Position numbers and translations under genes: made by a program. A model generated the notes under the pieces. The model saw only the letters and a program-made list of their open reading frames with translations. It searched no databases and was not told the origin of the DNA. From contig DAIOUV010000005.1 in assembly GCA_036759345.1 (NCBI GenBank), forward strand, positions 56,246-120,245: 64,000 bases of DNA. The letters are read 5' to 3'. Below, in pieces: positions 1 to 6,474 of the stretch (position 1 is its first letter; every line of letters starts with the position of its first letter). Source of the DNA: Acidobacteriota bacterium. GTDB taxonomy: Bacteria; Acidobacteriota; Thermoanaerobaculia; UBA5066.

Positions 1-61
1 CCGTCACGAACGCTCCCGCGCGCGCCGCCCAGCGGATAAGTCGCAGGGACAGGAGAGACAC

Positions 62-1033
62 ATGTTGTGGAAGGGTTTTCAACGTCCGAACCGTCTCGAG
101 GTCGATGAAGAGAAGGGCAACTACGGCCGCTTCACGGCGCAGCCGCTCGAGCGCGGCTGGGGCACGACGGTCGGCAACGCGCTCCGGCGCGTTCTTCTCT
201 CGTCGATCGAGGGCGCCGCGGTCACCGGGGTGAAGATCGAGGGCGTGGAGCACGAGTTCACGGCCGTCCCGGGCGTCGTCGAAGACGTCACGGACATCAT
301 CCTCAATCTCAAGGGCCTCGCGATCCGCCTGCACGAAGACGGCCCGCGGGCGCTCACGCTCGACGTCAAGACGAAGGGTGCCGTGACCGCCGACGCCTTC
401 GAGGACGATGCGCAGCTCGAGATTCTCAATCCCGACGCCCCCGTCGCGACGCTGGCCGACGGAGGCCGGCTGCGTCTCGAGGCAACGGTCAGCAAGGGCC
501 GCGGCTACGTGCCGGCCGACCGCAACTTCGATCCGGAAGCTCCGATCGGCACGATTCCCCTCGATTCGGCCCACTCGCCCGTCCGCCGCGTGAACTATCA
601 CGTCGAGGCGGCCCGCGTCGGCCAGGCGACGGACTATGACAAGCTGGTCATCGAAGTCTGGACGAACGGCACGATCTCCCCGCGCGACGCCGTCGGCGTG
701 GCCGCGGTCCTGATCCGCGACCATCTCGCGATCTTCGTGAACGTCGAGACGGACGAGGCGGCCCAGGCGGCCGGAGCCGAGATGCCGCAGAGCGAGCTCG
801 ACGCCCTTCTCGACACGAACGTCGAGGAGCTCGAGCTTTCCGTACGCAGCGCGAATTGCCTGAAGAACGCCGGCATCCGCACGCTTCGCGAGCTGGTCCA
901 GAAGACCGAGAAGGACATGCTCGAAACAAAGAACTTCGGGCGGAAGAGCCTGAACGAAATCAAGGACATCCTGCGCGACAAGGGCCTCGCCTTCGGCATG
1001 AAGCTCGAGTCTCCGGCCGGCGCGGGTCGCTGA
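62..1033 (+). CDS. rpoA: DNA-directed RNA polymerase subunit alpha
   Basis: 323-aa ORF with typical alpha NTD and CTD (…[15 protein letters not shown]…); directly followed by rplQ as in the conserved ribosomal cluster end. Confidence 0.95.
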
Positions 1034-1040
1034 GGAATCC

Positions 1041-1694
1041 ATGCAGCACAATCGAGCGGGTCGCAAGCTCGGCCGGACGACGGCGCATCGCAAGTCGCTC
1101 TTTAGGAACCAGCTTTCGTCCCTCATCACCCACGAGCGGATCCAAACGACGCTGCCGAAGGCGAAAGACCTCCGGCCGCTCATCGAGAAGATGGTCACCC
1201 TCGGAAAGCGGGGCGGTCTCCACGCGCGCCGTCTCGCCCTGAAGACCATTCCCGAGGCGACGACCGTCAAGAAGCTCTTCGAGGAGATCGCGCCGCGCTT
1301 CAAGGAGCGCGCCGGCGGCTACACCCGAATCATGAAGCTCGGACGGCGTCAGGGTGACGGCGCCGAGATGGCGATCCTCGAGTTCATCGACTTCGACTGG
1401 GCGCACCGCCAGGCGGAGAAGAAGGTCGCGGCGAAGGCCGCCGAGGAGAAGAAGCAGTCGCTCCTCGAAAGGGCCAAGAAGCTCGTCTCGGGCAAGAGTG
1501 AAGGCAAGAGTGACGCCGATAAGGCCGAGAAGAAGGGCGAGGGCGCCGAAGCCGAAGGCGAGACGGAGAAGGCCGAAAAGAAAGCCAAGGCCCCCGTCGA
1601 GAAGAAGAAGGGTTACACCGCTCCGAAGGGGCCGAAGGGCTCCGGACCGAGGGGCGGCGGCTCTCACGGCGGCAGCAAACGCAAGACAGGATAG
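1041..1694 (+). CDS. rplQ: 50S ribosomal protein L17 with Lys/Ala/Glu-rich C-terminal extension
   Basis: N-terminus [24 protein letters not shown]… is canonical L17; C-terminal ~90 aa low-complexity KAEK-rich tail. Confidence 0.9.
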
Positions 1695-1882
1695 GAATTA
1701 CCCGAGCGCGTTCTCGATTTCGGTCCAAAGCGTACGGGGCACGTACGTCCTCTCCAACATCCGCTTGGCCGACGGCGAAACGTTCGTCTCCTACTCGGCT
1801 CACCGCGATGCACAATCACCGTGGCTGACATCCTCATCGCGCAGGTGAAGAGCCGCTTTCGAGGGATCTGTGAGGAAACGAG

Positions 1883-3325
1883 ATGAGTTGGTCCGACGGC
1901 GAGCTGCGTGCGTTGGCCGAGGCCCATTTTCGTGGGGAACTTCCGAGATGCCCCCGGGACGGAACGCCGGTCCGTGCCGAAGAGATCACGACGTTAGGTA
2001 GAAGGACGGCCGATCTCTATCTTCGGTGTCCTCGGTGTGGGAACTCAGCGACCTTCGAGAACGACGAGCCGACGGGCAGCAGCCCATCGTGGACCGCACC
2101 GCAGCGACAGACAATCGTCGACGACTATTGGCGGAATGGAGCGGCACGGTGCCCGGTGGACGAGACCATCCTACACATTCAGGAGTCGGCTGAGCTCGGT
2201 CACGAGGTCACCGCGATTTTGGTGCACTGCCTTAGGTGTGGGCGTTACTTTTCTAGTGACGAGGAGCAGCAGGACGAGCCGGCCGGCGAGTCGTTTGAAG
2301 GTCGGTACGAAGTCCTTCGGCAGATAGGCAGAGGCGGAATGGGAACCGTCGACCTCGTCAAGGATCGACGGACGGGCGGCCTCTTCGCTGCGAAGACGAT
2401 TCGACCGGATCGAGTCGACGACGCTGATTCTCTACGAAGATTTCAACGTGAAGTGAGACTTCTACGGGGCGTCTCGCATCCGCATGTCGTGAGGATCGTC
2501 GACGACTTCATCGCTGGTGGTACCGCGGTCTACGTCATGGAGTATCTGCCCGGTGGGGACCTGGCCAATGCACTTTCCGATCCCAACCGAGGTCGGCCTG
2601 CCTTGGCGACGCTCTTCAGCGACGCAGCGGAGGCGGTGGAGCACCTGCACGGGGCAGGCGTAATTCATCGCGACCTCAAGCCTCAAAACATCCTTGTCGA
2701 TGCGGAGGGGCGAGGCCGAGTGTCAGACTTCGGCCTTGCTGTCGCGAGCGCGCGCGATACGACGCCCCTCACCGGTACGGACGTGTTTGTCGGAACGAGA
2801 CGTTACGCGGCCCCCGAGCAGCACCGTGGGGCGCGCGATGTCACTTCGCGGGCGGACATCTTTTCGTTGGGGTTGATAGCGATCGAGGTGGTGACGCGCC
2901 TGCCATACCCAGACGACTTCCTCACGATGTGCCGTGGTACGGGCCAGCTCGCAGACGCGCTGAGCAGAGCGTTGGATCTGGACCCGACGAGGCGCACCAT
3001 CCGGCCGCTCGAATTAGCTGAGGCCGTCCGGGCGCACATCGAGCGAGAAATGGGAACGACCGTGACGCAAAAGGCGAGAATTGAGGTCCCGCAGAACGGC
3101 TTCACCTTGTTGAACCGGGTGACGGATGACGATGCAGTCGATACCCACCTCAAAGAGCTCGGCTTCCGCCGAACCGGGAAACGCGGATGGCCGAAGAAGG
3201 GGCAACTCTATTTAGGGCGAGGAAAGCCTTTCGGTCCGTTTCGCGGGATCTATCGCAAAGAGGTCGACCCGCCGGCTGGTGGGTTATCGACGGCTGACCT
3301 TTTCGAACTGCTTGAGGAAATCTGA
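1883..3325 (+). CDS. Ser/Thr protein kinase (Hanks-type) with N-terminal tandem zinc-ribbon modules and uncharacterised C-terminal domain
   Basis: Kinase motifs GRGGMGTV…AAKTI, HRDLKPQNILVD, DFGLA, APE. N-term has two repeated CPxDxT…x18…C(P/L)RCG units. Gene sits in a lower-GC segment. Confidence 0.85.
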   Translation: MSWSDGELRALAEAHFRGELPRCPRDGTPVRAEEITTLGRRTADLYLRCPRCGNSATFENDEPTGSSPSWTAPQRQTIVDDYWRNGAARCPVDETILHIQESAELGHEVTAILVHCLRCGRYFSSDEEQQDEPAGESFEGRYEVLRQIGRGGMGTVDLVKDRRTGGLFAAKTIRPDRVDDADSLRRFQREVRLLRGVSHPHVVRIVDDFIAGGTAVYVMEYLPGGDLANALSDPNRGRPALATLFSDAAEAVEHLHGAGVIHRDLKPQNILVDAEGRGRVSDFGLAVASARDTTPLTGTDVFVGTRRYAAPEQHRGARDVTSRADIFSLGLIAIEVVTRLPYPDDFLTMCRGTGQLADALSRALDLDPTRRTIRPLELAEAVRAHIEREMGTTVTQKARIEVPQNGFTLLNRVTDDDAVDTHLKELGFRRTGKRGWPKKGQLYLGRGKPFGPFRGIYRKEVDPPAGGLSTADLFELLEEI

Positions 3326-3347
3326 CGTCGAGTGCGTCCCTCCGCAC

Positions 3348-3409
3348 GGCGCGATGCGTGCGAGACGGCCATGTGTGACGAGTGCGCCTGGCCGGGCGCG
3401 CATCGCGCC
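3348..3409. terminator. GC-rich inverted repeat between convergent genes (possible bidirectional terminator)
   Basis: Arms GGCGCGATGCG (3348-3358) and CGCATCGCGCC (3399-3409), located between the stop of the kinase gene and the stop of the DUF3800 gene; no clear U-tract. Confidence 0.35.
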
Positions 3410-3443
3410 TCGGTGGAGCTTCTTCCTTTAGTGGTCGTGCGCC

Positions 3444-4187
3444 CTATGCCTCGTCGAACTGCTCGACGAGGGCGCGAAGGGCAGCGTAATTGAAGTACCT
3501 TGGGTTTATCAGCCTTCGCCGGAGCCGCGCCATCGATTTTCTCTCTCCGCGGGTTGGGTCGAAGAGCTTGTGGTCGAGGGCCTTCCGGAGCTCGTAAGCC
3601 ATGAGGTCCGCCGCCTGAAGAGGGATCGCGTCGTGCTTCGAGGCAAAGCGAAGCGAGCCCAGGCGAAATGCTCGCGGCCACTTTCCGCCGGAAGTCAGTT
3701 CGTCGTAGACCTTCTCGGCCCTTGCGTGGAACTCGCCCTGTTGATCGAAGACGAATGCGATTTTCTCGCGCGGATGAACGTCTTCAGCCTGGATGCAGGT
3801 CTCGATGAGGCAGTGCTGAAAGGCCAGGAGGTAGGGATGGCGATACCAGTGCGGTGTCACCTTGCCACGCGCGATGAACTCAGCAGAGATGCGCTCATAG
3901 TCGGCCTTGACGACTCCACAGCCTATGCCCCAGACGTCCGTCGAATTAATGAGCGCCAGCAGGTCCTTGATGAGGCCGATTCGTTTCGCGTTACTCCAGC
4001 CCTCGAACTCGCCGTGCCGAGTCTCGAACTCGGCCATGTGGAAGCAGCTGACGCCAGCCTCGGCGAGGAGTTGCTGCCAAGCCCTCGTCAGCTCGAACCA
4101 GTCCTTGGAATCGGCGACGTAGCCGCCGATGCAGAAGGTCTGGGACTTCTCGTCCAGGCCGCTCTCGTCGAAATAGCCCGCGAGCAC
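3444..4187 (-). CDS. DUF3800 family protein
   Basis: Probable GTG start giving VLAGYFDESG… (the YxDESG N-terminal signature of DUF3800) and C-terminal IPLQAADLMAYEL motif. The ORF-track N-terminal 90 aa (MGGHGRAP…) is Arg/Pro-rich read-through and is ignored. Overlaps the stop of the upstream Mrr gene by a few nt. Confidence 0.7.
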   Translation of the reverse strand: MLAGYFDESGLDEKSQTFCIGGYVADSKDWFELTRAWQQLLAEAGVSCFHMAEFETRHGEFEGWSNAKRIGLIKDLLALINSTDVWGIGCGVVKADYERISAEFIARGKVTPHWYRHPYLLAFQHCLIETCIQAEDVHPREKIAFVFDQQGEFHARAEKVYDELTSGGKWPRAFRLGSLRFASKHDAIPLQAADLMAYELRKALDHKLFDPTRGERKSMARLRRRLINPRYFNYAALRALVEQFDEA

Positions 4188-4195
4188 GCCGGGCG

Positions 4196-5113
4196 CTACT
4201 CCTCGCCGAAGTAGTCGGAGTCGCTGCGCTTGACCTGGTAGGAGGCGACGGGGGCGACGCCGAGGTCGAAGTCGATCATCAGCTCGGCGAGCTGGCGGCC
4301 GTCGATGAGAACGACCTTGGGGTCGATGTGCGAGACGTAGTCCTTGGCATCTGAGGAGAACGTGCCGGTCGTCAGGAAGACGCCCTTCTTGGCCCTCTTG
4401 CCGTGCAGCGCGCCGACAAACTTCTGGATCTCCGGGCGCCCGACCGTGCCCGCCCACTTCTTGGCCTGGATGTAGATCACGTCGAGGCCGAGGCGGTCCT
4501 CATTGATGACGCCATCGATCCCTTCGTCTCCGGACTGTCCGATGGCCTTGCCGGCCTCCTTCCGCGATCCCCCGTAACCCATCTTCACCAGCAGCTCGAC
4601 GACGAGGGTTTCGAAGAAGGCGGGGGAAGTCTTCTTTACCCTTTCGAGGAGATCGGCGGCCAGGTCCGTGCGGATGCGGCTGTAGGAGGCTTCGAGCGCT
4701 TCCTCGGGCGTCTCGTGGTCGGTCGAGGTGGTTTCTGTCCCGGTCTGCTCGTGGTCTGAGGTGTCCTTCTTCGTCCTGAACTCCACGAACTCCGGGAACT
4801 GGTCGAGGAGCTTGATGTCGACCCGCTGGGGCTTCGTCGCGAGCACCTCAAGGCCGCGCGGCGCGATCTGGAAGTGGCCTCTCTTGGGGGAGGCCAAGAG
4901 GCCGGCCCGCTGCAAATACACCTTGGCCCAGGCCACGCGGTTATTGAAGACGGCCTGCCGGCCGCTCGGGAGGAGAAGCGCGCGCTCTTCTTCCGTGACA
5001 TGGAGCTTTTCGGCCAGCCAGTCGCGGGCCTCCTGAAGCGAATGCTCTTTCTGGTCCGCTGCGGCCATCTGCAGCAGGGGGAGCATCAGACTCTGGAAGT
5101 CGGGAACCGCCAC
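4196..5113 (-). CDS. mrr: Mrr-family type IV restriction endonuclease (Mrr_N winged helix + Mrr_cat)
   Basis: N-terminus VAVPDFQSLMLPLLQ… resembles E. coli Mrr N-terminal domain; C-terminal catalytic region …DGVINEDRLGLDVIYIQAKKW… (D…QxK). GTG start chosen at 5113 with GGGAAGAGG RBS; an ATG alternative lies ~27 nt downstream. Confidence 0.75.
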   Translation of the reverse strand: MAVPDFQSLMLPLLQMAAADQKEHSLQEARDWLAEKLHVTEEERALLLPSGRQAVFNNRVAWAKVYLQRAGLLASPKRGHFQIAPRGLEVLATKPQRVDIKLLDQFPEFVEFRTKKDTSDHEQTGTETTSTDHETPEEALEASYSRIRTDLAADLLERVKKTSPAFFETLVVELLVKMGYGGSRKEAGKAIGQSGDEGIDGVINEDRLGLDVIYIQAKKWAGTVGRPEIQKFVGALHGKRAKKGVFLTTGTFSSDAKDYVSHIDPKVVLIDGRQLAELMIDFDLGVAPVASYQVKRSDSDYFGEE

Positions 5114-5349
5114 TACGAGGCCTCTTCCCGTCTGAGCTGATTTCTCTCGACGAGTGCCTCGATGAGCTGGACGACCTGGCACAGCTCGATGGGGGAGAGC
5201 TTCTCGACCTGCCTGAGCTTTCTCTTGCGGATCTTGCCGATCGGCGCCGAGGTTTGGCAGTGATGGAACGAGGCATCCTTCATCATCACGTCGATCCTAC
5301 GTGCTGCGCGCGCAGGGCCGCAATGAAAATTGCCCTGCCGCCCTCCGCC

Positions 5350-5742
5350 CTAGCTCAGCGCTTTCTCGATCTCCTGGATGAGCACCTTCGTCGAGAAGGG
5401 TTTCGTGAGATAGCTCGACGCCCCGAGCCGGATGCCGAGGTCGCGCTCCGACGGCAGCGTGCGCGCCGTGAGCATCACGATTGGCAGGCGCGACGTCGCC
5501 GGATTTTCCTTCAGGATGCGGCAGACGTCGAAGCCGGTGAGGCCGGGCGTGAGGGACACATCGAGGAGGACGAGGTCGGGTGCTTCCTCGCGCACCATGC
5601 GGAGCGCCTCCTCGCCGCCGGTCGCCTCCACCGGCTGGAGCCCCGTCAGGCGCAGCTTGAAGGAGAGGATCTTCAGGATCGTGGGTTCGTCGTCCACGAC
5701 CAGGATCTTTCGACCCGCGAGGCCCGGGGGAAGACTGCTCAT
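5350..5742 (-). CDS. Single-domain response regulator (CheY-like receiver)
   Basis: KILVVDDEP…DLVLLDVSL…MLTAR…KPF receiver motifs, 130 aa, no output domain. Confidence 0.85.
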   Translation of the reverse strand: MSSLPPGLAGRKILVVDDEPTILKILSFKLRLTGLQPVEATGGEEALRMVREEAPDLVLLDVSLTPGLTGFDVCRILKENPATSRLPIVMLTARTLPSERDLGIRLGASSYLTKPFSTKVLIQEIEKALS

Positions 5743-5749
5743 CGGGCTT

Positions 5750-6187
5750 TCATTCTAGCGAGAGCGGCGCGCCGGTCAGCACGACGACGGCGGCGGCCAT
5801 CTCCCGCGTATGGGTGATCGTGACGTGCGCTCCCGTGACGCCGAGGCGCGCCCCGTGGAGGCGCGCCCGCCCGAAGAGGGCGAGCCGGGGCGGCCCTCCC
5901 GGGCTGCGGACGATAGCGAGCTCGCGAAACGCGACGCCGCGCATTCCCGTTCCGAGCGCCTTCATCGCCGCCTCCTTCGCCGCGAAGAGTCCCGCGACGT
6001 GCTCCGCATACGCCGGCGACCCGGGGAGCCGGCGGACCTCGCCCGGCCGGAAAAGCCTCTCGGCGAAACGCGCTCCGTGGCGTTCGATCGCGCGCGCCAC
6101 GCGCGGAATCTCGCAGAGATCGACGCCGAGTCCGACCACTCCCGATCCCGGAGGAAGACCGTCCTCCGGCCCGACGCGGTCGCTCAT
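5750..6187 (-). CDS. acpS: Holo-[acyl-carrier-protein] synthase
   Basis: VVGLGVDLCEIPRV…AAKEAAMKALGTG… matches AcpS 4'-phosphopantetheinyl transferase. Start placed at MSDRV (ATG), overlapping the upstream small ORF stop. Confidence 0.8.
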   Translation of the reverse strand: MSDRVGPEDGLPPGSGVVGLGVDLCEIPRVARAIERHGARFAERLFRPGEVRRLPGSPAYAEHVAGLFAAKEAAMKALGTGMRGVAFRELAIVRSPGGPPRLALFGRARLHGARLGVTGAHVTITHTREMAAAVVVLTGAPLSLE

Positions 6188-6474
6188 GCGGGTTCCCGCG
6201 GGGCCGGCGAAGGAGCATCGCTCCGCGGCTCGCGCGACTCGCGTCTCCATGCCTCGATCTCGGAAGCCGCGGCCCAGAGGTGCAGGAGCCCGAGGCCGAG
6301 AAGGAAGCTCCGGAAATAAGGCGATTCGAGGAAGGGACGCGTTCGTTCGGGGGACCGCCCGACGACGCGCACCATCCAGTACCGGCCCCAGGGTGCGAGT
6401 GTCAGGAAGGCGCCGGCCTCGAGGGCATAGATGACGAAGAGGGCCCTGAGAAGCCGGCTGCCGGTTCGTGCCAC
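6184..6474 (-). CDS. Small hydrophobic protein, unknown function
   Basis: 96-aa ORF with two predicted TM segments (LLRALFVIYALEAGAFLTLAPW…, FLLGLGLLHLWAAA), translationally coupled to acpS. Confidence 0.5.
   Translation of the reverse strand: MARTGSRLLRALFVIYALEAGAFLTLAPWGRYWMVRVVGRSPERTRPFLESPYFRSFLLGLGLLHLWAAASEIEAWRRESREPRSDAPSPAPREPA

Follow-up and report, generated by a model that had tools for sequence, protein, structure and literature searches.

Whether genes that share one small insertion also share one function is the question raised by a lower-GC islet in the genome of an uncultured member of the Acidobacteriota (GenBank assembly GCA_036759345.1). The islet lies between the ribosomal protein gene rplQ and a regulator gene in a stretch of 64,000 nt (contig DAIOUV010000005.1, positions 56,246 to 120,245), hereafter referred to as the window, and encodes a Ser/Thr kinase with tandem zinc ribbons, a DUF3800 protein and an Mrr restriction endonuclease. 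A first-pass annotation had viewed it as a candidate defence island in which the three proteins may act together as a sensing or abortive-infection module. The present analysis supports the view that the islet is foreign, horizontally acquired DNA, as judged from an empty site, direct repeats and a deviant composition, and it is probably a decayed integrative element with two independent cargo modules, namely an Mrr-DUF3800 cassette and a solitary kinase. The earlier view thus holds for an acquired segment with content of the defence and mobile-element type, but not for one joint system.

The insert is 3,652 bp long. The empty site is preserved in a close relative (comparison locus L094, 97.2% nucleotide identity), in which rplQ and the regulator gene are convergent with their stop codons 3 nt apart, and to which window positions 1-1718 and 5357-5445 both align with an overlap of 14 nt (BLASTN). 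The insert is also missing from L013, L095 and L099-L102, where the two genes are convergent as in L094; the regulator gene follows straight after rplQ in L013 (flank nucleotide identities 94% and 89%) and lies within a few hundred bases of rplQ in six further relatives. The limits of 1700 and 5300 proposed earlier are corrected here to 1698/1705 on the left and 5355/5373 on the right. An imperfect direct repeat of 17 bp, matching at 15 of the 17 positions, has one copy at each end, the two being 3,652 bp apart. At the left border lies the former 3' terminus of the regulator gene, now displaced (TTACCCGAGCGCgTTCTCGATtTC, which reads EIENALG* in reverse complement), and the last codons of the gene are today provided by the insert, with a change from ...EIEKALG* to ...EIEKALS*. 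The neighbour described earlier simply as a regulator is a single-domain receiver protein (130 aa), the last residue of which has changed from Gly to Ser and the stop codon from TAA to TAG (window 5350-5355 compared with L094:4949-4955). An identical islet is carried by L268-L270, which represent the same strain in other samples (99.98-100% nucleotide identity).

The lower GC content noticed earlier was confirmed, since positions 1700-5300 form the lowest-GC 3.6-kb window of the 64 kb (62.2% compared with 68.4% elsewhere). When the individual genes were compared with 39 background open reading frames (ORFs), the kinase gene was the sole strong outlier of the three (GC content at third codon positions, GC3, 0.69; z = -3.5), the DUF3800 gene deviated only to z = -1.7 (GC3 0.77) and the Mrr gene was host-like (GC3 0.88; z = +0.6); the compositional shift is not uniform among the genes. 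Besides the three genes recognised at first, the insert holds a truncated XRE-type helix-turn-helix (HTH) gene that had been overlooked, and no other gene (Table 1).

The features by which remnants of integrative elements are recognised are all present, namely the empty site of L094, the repeats at both ends and the shift in composition. The islet resembles integrase-less islets flanked by repeats like attachment (att) sites, which are remnants akin to cis-mobilisable elements, in having inserted at a gene's 3' end, and in the rebuilt gene end, the short repeats, the empty site, the composition and the defence-type cargo. It differs from them in that it targets a response-regulator gene instead of a tRNA gene, has a repeat that is imperfect and only 17 bp long, and lacks a recombinase: no recombinase domain was found with Pfam in 1698-5355, and no tRNA or tmRNA that may have served as an integration target was found in the whole window. 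The 17-bp att-like core was sought in L001-L093, the further loci with the kinase, the cassette or DUF3800, and was found in none of them.

Table 1. Features of the islet and its immediate neighbours in the window (the starts of the DUF3800 and Mrr genes were set by homology)
Feature	Position	Strand	Remarks
rpoA	62-1033	+	upstream of rplQ
rplQ	1041-1694	+	left neighbour of the islet
Left border with left direct-repeat copy (1705-1721)	1698-1721		repeat search, empty-site alignment, BLASTN
Kinase with tandem zinc ribbons	1883-3325	+	480 aa; Pfam
GC-rich inverted-repeat element, 88 bp	3343-3430		in the gap where the kinase and DUF3800 genes converge
DUF3800 protein	3444-4187	-	247 aa, GTG start; Pfam; predicted RNase H2-like nuclease
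Mrr type IV (modification-dependent) restriction endonuclease	4196-5113	-	305 aa, GTG start; Pfam, PADLOC
58-codon ORF	5113-5289	-	3' part of an XRE-HTH gene retained in the last 36 codons (~5113-5223)
Single-domain response regulator (receiver only), target gene	5350-5742	-	130 aa; Pfam Response_reg 2.9e-23
Right direct-repeat copy	5357-5373		AGCGCTTTCTCGATCTC; within the 3' end of the response-regulator gene
acpS	5750-6250	-	upstream of the response-regulator gene

The history that best accounts for these features would begin with site-specific recombination, by which a small integrative element entered the response-regulator gene within its last codons. The incoming element would have had the order integrase, primase, HTH, Mrr and DUF3800, possibly with the kinase, and a later deletion would have removed the integrase next to the att site, together with the primase and the upstream (5') half of the HTH gene. 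The first cargo module would be a mobile (HTH)-Mrr-DUF3800 cassette, in which DUF3800 is presumably co-transcribed with Mrr and is most likely a second nuclease, autonomous or accessory, and not an obligate partner of Mrr. The second would be a kinase that stands alone and belongs to a rare family; its ribbon head is most plausibly a sensor of a ligand or a partner, and the kinase would phosphorylate host or invader proteins by a logic like that of Stk2. The functional roles proposed here are predictions from domain identity, conservation and genomic context. The two modules would have become adjacent through shared mobility and the accretion of defence-type genes, not as parts of one machine.

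Several points weigh against this history. The insert and its neighbours are without an integrase, excisionase or transposase, so that the mechanism of integration is deduced from the repeat alone, and homology-facilitated illegitimate recombination could be an alternative source of the imperfect 17-bp repeat. All the comparison loci are metagenomic contigs, and they provide only six other kinase contexts (L001-L006) and two independent cassette contexts. Further, the Mrr and DUF3800 genes have been kept together in three contexts over a synonymous divergence (dS) of 0.26-0.58 with an invariant spacer of 8 nt, a constancy that is also expected of a true two-gene system.

The cassette is found in surroundings different from those in the window. 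Positions 3439-5224 match L008/L009 and L007 with 89-90% nucleotide identity (BLASTN), and the aligned region is bounded by the DUF3800 stop codon on one side and by a point within the small ORF on the other. The gene order in L008 is integrase, a 1,042-aa primase-like protein, a 116-aa XRE-HTH protein, Mrr and DUF3800, and a Phage_integrase gene was seen only with this related cassette, not for the whole islet; the L007 cassette is flanked by a CoA-ligase-like gene and a PemK toxin-antitoxin pair. The small ORF of the window aligns with the 116-aa HTH_3 protein of L008 over residues 81-116 only, at 89% identity (BLASTP and DNA alignment), so the DNA-binding domain is gone; the TAG stop codon of the ORF overlaps the GTG start of Mrr (TAGTG). 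The earlier reading of Mrr and DUF3800 as overlapping genes could not be upheld. The longest-ORF starts, GTG 4457 for DUF3800 and GTG 5182 for Mrr, were dropped for the homology-supported ones at 4187 and 5113, which leave a gap of 8 nt, the same in the window as in L007 and L008. The cassette is placed 60 nt downstream of the acpS and regulator genes on the same strand, and read-through transcription is possible; promoter and terminator scans of the islet gave no excess over shuffled sequences.

Profile searches, recommended in the first-pass annotation, bore out its domain assignments (for the kinase and DUF3800, see below). In Mrr, Pfam detects Mrr_N (2.8e-29, aa 6-92) and Mrr_cat (8.2e-36, aa 160-279), and the PADLOC model mREase_IV matches over profile positions 2-315 of 317 (5.9e-93). 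Members of the Mrr family, a bona fide family of type IV restriction enzymes, recognise modified foreign DNA with an N-terminal winged helix and cut it with a PD-QxK domain. When read by eye, the protein has GIDGVI...LDVIYIQAKKW, which may correspond to the D...QxK configuration of the family. The two-domain build, with an Mrr_N winged helix and an Mrr_cat nuclease of the PD-(D/E)xK type, is that of the Escherichia coli Mrr family, as is the occurrence as a single polypeptide with no cognate methyltransferase nearby; the Mrr of the window differs in being preceded by a translationally coupled XRE-HTH gene, now truncated, followed after 8 nt by DUF3800, and in moving as a cassette. Searches of solved-structure sequences with Mrr and DUF3800 gave no matches, and a PHROGs search of the islet proteins returned generic kinase and restriction-enzyme families only. 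The Mrr protein is 96-98% identical to the L007 and L008 copies, and among the three cassette copies, at dS 0.26-0.58, the dN/dS ratio is 0.03-0.05 for Mrr and 0.11-0.24 for DUF3800; these low values indicate that both the genes are maintained by selection.

The DUF3800 protein matches Pfam PF12686 (1.4e-11). Residues D7, S9, Q191, A193 and D194 are invariant in 40 homologues, E8 and H50 are conserved in at least 90% of them, and the DE...QxxD motif (N-terminal DE, C-terminal QxxD) is intact. A confident AF2 model (pLDDT 93.8, pTM 0.91) was matched best by RNase HII 1eke in a Foldseek search (E 2.8e-5, probability 1.0, TM 0.47-0.50), and almost all of the top 20 PDB entries are of RNase HII, H2 or H3. 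The protein thus models as a predicted metal-dependent nuclease of the RNase H2 fold. This agrees with published predictions for the DUF3800 proteins associated with retron type VII, Cas12a2 and type VI-F loci, in which DUF3800 is reported as an RNase H-fold accessory nuclease (PMC7736814, PMC10910872, PMC12669027). The Pfam family, the DE and QxxD motifs and the predicted RNase H2-like fold are the same as in those proteins; the DUF3800 of the window differs in that its partner is a restriction enzyme and that neither a reverse transcriptase nor a Cas gene nor a TPR domain is encoded nearby. Neither a reverse transcriptase nor msr/msd, by which a retron of type VII is defined, stands beside DUF3800 or is fused to it, and a scan of 1500-5800 with Rfam at its E-value setting found no retron RNA and none of the eleven DUF3800-associated RNA motifs (DUF3800-I to -XI), with only three chance-level matches to unrelated families.

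These data bear on a question nested within the preferred history, namely whether HTH-Mrr-DUF3800 is a true multi-gene restriction system to which the kinase is unrelated. DUF3800 would then be an obligate or enhancing partner of Mrr, acting for example on RNA:DNA hybrids or on ends made by Mrr, and the HTH protein would be the controller. The gene order, the 8-nt gap and the TAGTG overlap are constant in the three contexts, purifying selection has acted on both the genes over the synonymous divergence given above, and DUF3800 is reported as an accessory of the retron and CRISPR loci just named. However, the pairing is restricted to one shallow clade, in which DUF3800 is at least 83% identical. 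A wider set of 80 loci (L014-L093) from species-representative genomes, with DUF3800 proteins of 25-44% identity, has Mrr within 6 kb of DUF3800 at none, and 26 of the 80 loci have an IS1595-family transposase, the commonest neighbour, next to it. The E. coli Mrr-family enzymes function as lone proteins, and PADLOC has no model that matches the DUF3800 of the window. A truly coupled Mrr-DUF3800 system, and with it the partner role of DUF3800, is hence considered unlikely, and the preference remains for a cassette in which DUF3800 would be a second nuclease. Some of the more distant DUF3800 genes are solitary, and those at the 26 loci with an IS1595-family transposase (Pfam DDE_Tnp_IS1595, 7.9e-40) lie a few hundred bases from it (for example L082:7257-8273 and L088:8434-9378, both on the minus strand); DUF3800 may be a passenger gene of the insertion sequences of that family. 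The mobile (HTH)-Mrr-DUF3800 cassette could provide a tractable setting for the study of the role of DUF3800, a widespread predicted nuclease.

The kinase consists of two ribbon units (aa 1-62 and 68-128), a Hanks-type kinase domain (Pfam Pkinase 3.7e-45, aa 142-342) and a tail (aa ~390-480), and belongs to a very small family with about 16 relatives among 5.8 billion proteins. The motifs GRGGMG, AAK171, E190, H262-R-D264-L-K-P-x-N269, D282-F-G and P311-E312 are invariant in the 17 family members. As all the Hanks motifs are retained, the kinase appears catalytically complete from its sequence and should be active. The two ribbon units are 30% identical (E 2e-10), which establishes the genuine internal duplication that had been described at first; the motif CPxDGT...CPRCG then given for both does not hold for the second unit, which reads CPVDET...CLRCG. 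Structure prediction of the N-terminus by AF2, another of the checks suggested earlier, gave two copies of a helix with a three-stranded ribbon (pLDDT 88); the closest fold in the PDB, with an E-value of 6.6e-3 that is weak, is that of the double zinc-ribbon protein Rpb9. The ligand pattern is C-x2-D...C-x2-C in both the units of this protein; D93 is invariant family-wide and most of the relatives have Cys at the corresponding position in unit 1. The N-terminus would bind zinc through these residues. The C-terminal tail of about 90 aa, rich in Lys, Arg and Gly, has no Pfam match, as had been supposed, and no homologue in a word-indexed search of the 5.8 billion proteins; in the family alignment it is common only to P0001 and P0002.

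The best PADLOC matches of the kinase are mad6 (2.7e-57) and PD-T4-6 (3.8e-52). All its PADLOC and NCBIfam matches (mad6, PD-T4-6, PknB, MADS6, PglW) cover the kinase domain only and are far below the curated cut-offs, with 135.7 bits for NCBIfam antiphage_MADS6 against a cut-off of 460 and PD-T4-6 alignments confined to aa ~135-345. Since the PD-T4-6 and mad6 matches are limited to the generic kinase domain, they do not establish it as a defence kinase. The PD-T4-6 models also match housekeeping kinases of the PknB type with PASTA domains (PMC11514479), and in MADS (mad1-mad8) the MAD6, MAD7 and MAD8 genes are mandatory, together with methyltransferase and specificity genes (bioRxiv 10.1101/2023.03.30.534895). 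Neighbours of the mad7, mad8 or methyltransferase type are absent from the window, no full-length similarity to a validated defence kinase such as those of the PD-T4-6 or Stk2 type was found, and a viral scan with the kinase family alignment yielded generic kinase domains only. The protein shares with Stk2 of Staphylococcus, PD-T4-6, MAD6 of MADS and PglW of BREX a complete Hanks kinase combined with sensor-like non-kinase domains, and a location on mobile or defence-type DNA; its tandem C-x2-D/C ribbons and its tail match none of the profiles of those families that were searched.

The surroundings of the kinase in its six other loci are varied. The neighbours are EcoRII-Dcm-Vsr, a primase and an HTH gene in L001, a Phd antitoxin in L002, DUF87/HerA-like ATPases, Replic_Relax and a serine recombinase in L003-L005, and HicB, inside a split carboxyltransferase gene, in L006. 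An all-against-all comparison showed the kinase to be the only gene common to its seven loci, with no conserved neighbour. The short-type kinases, which have no tail, are encoded just downstream of the ATPases in L003:4582-6021, L004:3087-4976 and L005:1055-2578; these ATPases match PADLOC mad8 (4e-16, 2e-9 and 4e-13, respectively), and it is in L005 that the Replic_Relax protein and the serine recombinase are also encoded. The setting in L003-L005 could be that of a conjugative element or a distant MADS-like pairing. In L006:6318-10403 the kinase and a HicB-like antitoxin are placed between a carboxyltransferase fragment of 108 aa and the full gene of 552 aa, an arrangement suggestive of a further small insertion that duplicated its target.

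These loci bear on the proposal that the kinase, DUF3800 and Mrr are one sensing or abortive-infection system. The three genes do lie together in one insert with convergent transcription, all three domain types are known from defence contexts (PMC7736814), and the two closest kinase relatives with a readable downstream context face an EcoRII restriction-modification module (L001) and Phd (L002). Their co-occurrence, however, does not extend beyond the same strain. Mrr or DUF3800 is present at none of the six other kinase loci, the kinase at none of the five independent Mrr-DUF3800 contigs, and among the 80 distant DUF3800 loci a single one has any kinase-domain match, at 29% identity; all three together are seen elsewhere only in L268-L270. 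The composition of the genes is unlike (GC3 0.69 for the kinase and 0.88 for Mrr), and the nucleotide similarity of the cassette copies stops exactly between DUF3800 and the kinase. The three genes are thus not co-conserved, an outcome that the first-pass annotation had itself named as refuting the triple, and a joint system of the three is regarded as highly improbable. Genes that share one islet need not constitute one system, and the two modules here have had histories of their own. The island is real but fairly ordinary and leaves the current ideas on defence islands as they stand; its interest is as a tiny, cleanly bounded, integrase-less example with a ribosomal-protein operon on one side and a regulator gene on the other.

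A different function for the second module has also to be weighed, in which the kinase serves a mobile element, whether by manipulating the host, by controlling transfer or replication, or through exclusion, and not defence, so that the islet would be debris with one working restriction gene. It would fit the occurrence of the short-type members beside DUF87/HerA/TrwB-like ATPases, a Replic_Relax protein and a serine recombinase, a kinase GC3 below that of the host locus in every locus examined, and the restriction of the database matches to the kinase domain (MADS6 136 bits), including a PD-T4-6 model that is not specific to defence kinases. It is opposed by the tailed subfamily, which adjoins restriction and toxin-antitoxin genes and not transfer genes, by the fusion of the sensor-like N-terminal module to a predicted pPIWI-associated nuclease in another protein, and by the intactness of the gene in a remnant stripped of mobility genes. 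This question is separate from that of the history of the islet, and a role in the service of the element is regarded as the less likely one.

The ribbon module has a much wider distribution than the kinase that carries it. A profile of the module (aa 1-138 of the window protein) retrieved 407 representatives at E 1e-3 or better from 1.84 billion proteins, P0260-P0406 being among the matches. Among the best 150 of these, 126 are stand-alone proteins of less than 160 aa and the rest are mostly kinase fusions, with the module on either side; one is the fusion to the predicted pPIWI-associated nuclease (P0377). The stand-alone proteins are about 115-140 aa long, typically about 125 aa. No model in Pfam or NCBIfam matches this family, and a TBLASTN search of plasmids and phages with the module gave no match. 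A rare kinase family carries the double-ribbon module of a much larger stand-alone family for which the two databases have no model. Taken furthest, these observations would make the ribbon module a new sensor or adaptor of conflict systems and its kinase a new single-gene defence or abortive-infection kinase, and, independently, would make HTH-Mrr-DUF3800 a new type IV variant with an RNase H-like partner; this reading is rather improbable and is offered as speculation. A stand-alone ribbon-module gene in L174 (328-1108) is followed 2 nt on by a gene for a 129-aa protein, which was considered by eye as GIY-YIG (GNYALGY...YVGRSD...RLHKH) and rejected, as Pfam finds nothing in it.

The 88-bp element between the kinase and DUF3800 genes is present in a single copy in the window and is 84% identical (BLASTN) to L001 5941-6028, 3.2 kb downstream of the L001 kinase homologue, with the EcoRII-Dcm-Vsr module between the two. 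The identity of the element exceeds that of the kinase genes of the window and L001, which are only about 64-67% identical at the DNA level. Its predicted RNA fold has an energy of -60.5 kcal/mol, with z-scores of -1.7 on the plus and -2.4 on the minus strand; these are weak, and the stem is not maintained in L001 as read from the alignment, and the hairpin was rejected as a conserved RNA. Past the element, in L001:6100-7100, peptide strings such as ADKRVYRP and PINAFIG... recur in several frames, indicating a family of short DNA repeats. On the left flank of the islet, rplQ encodes a protein of 217 aa to which distant relatives (up to ~60% identity) align over residues 1 to about 117 only, and the part beyond is a tail rich in Lys, Glu, Ala and Gly that is typical of this lineage only.

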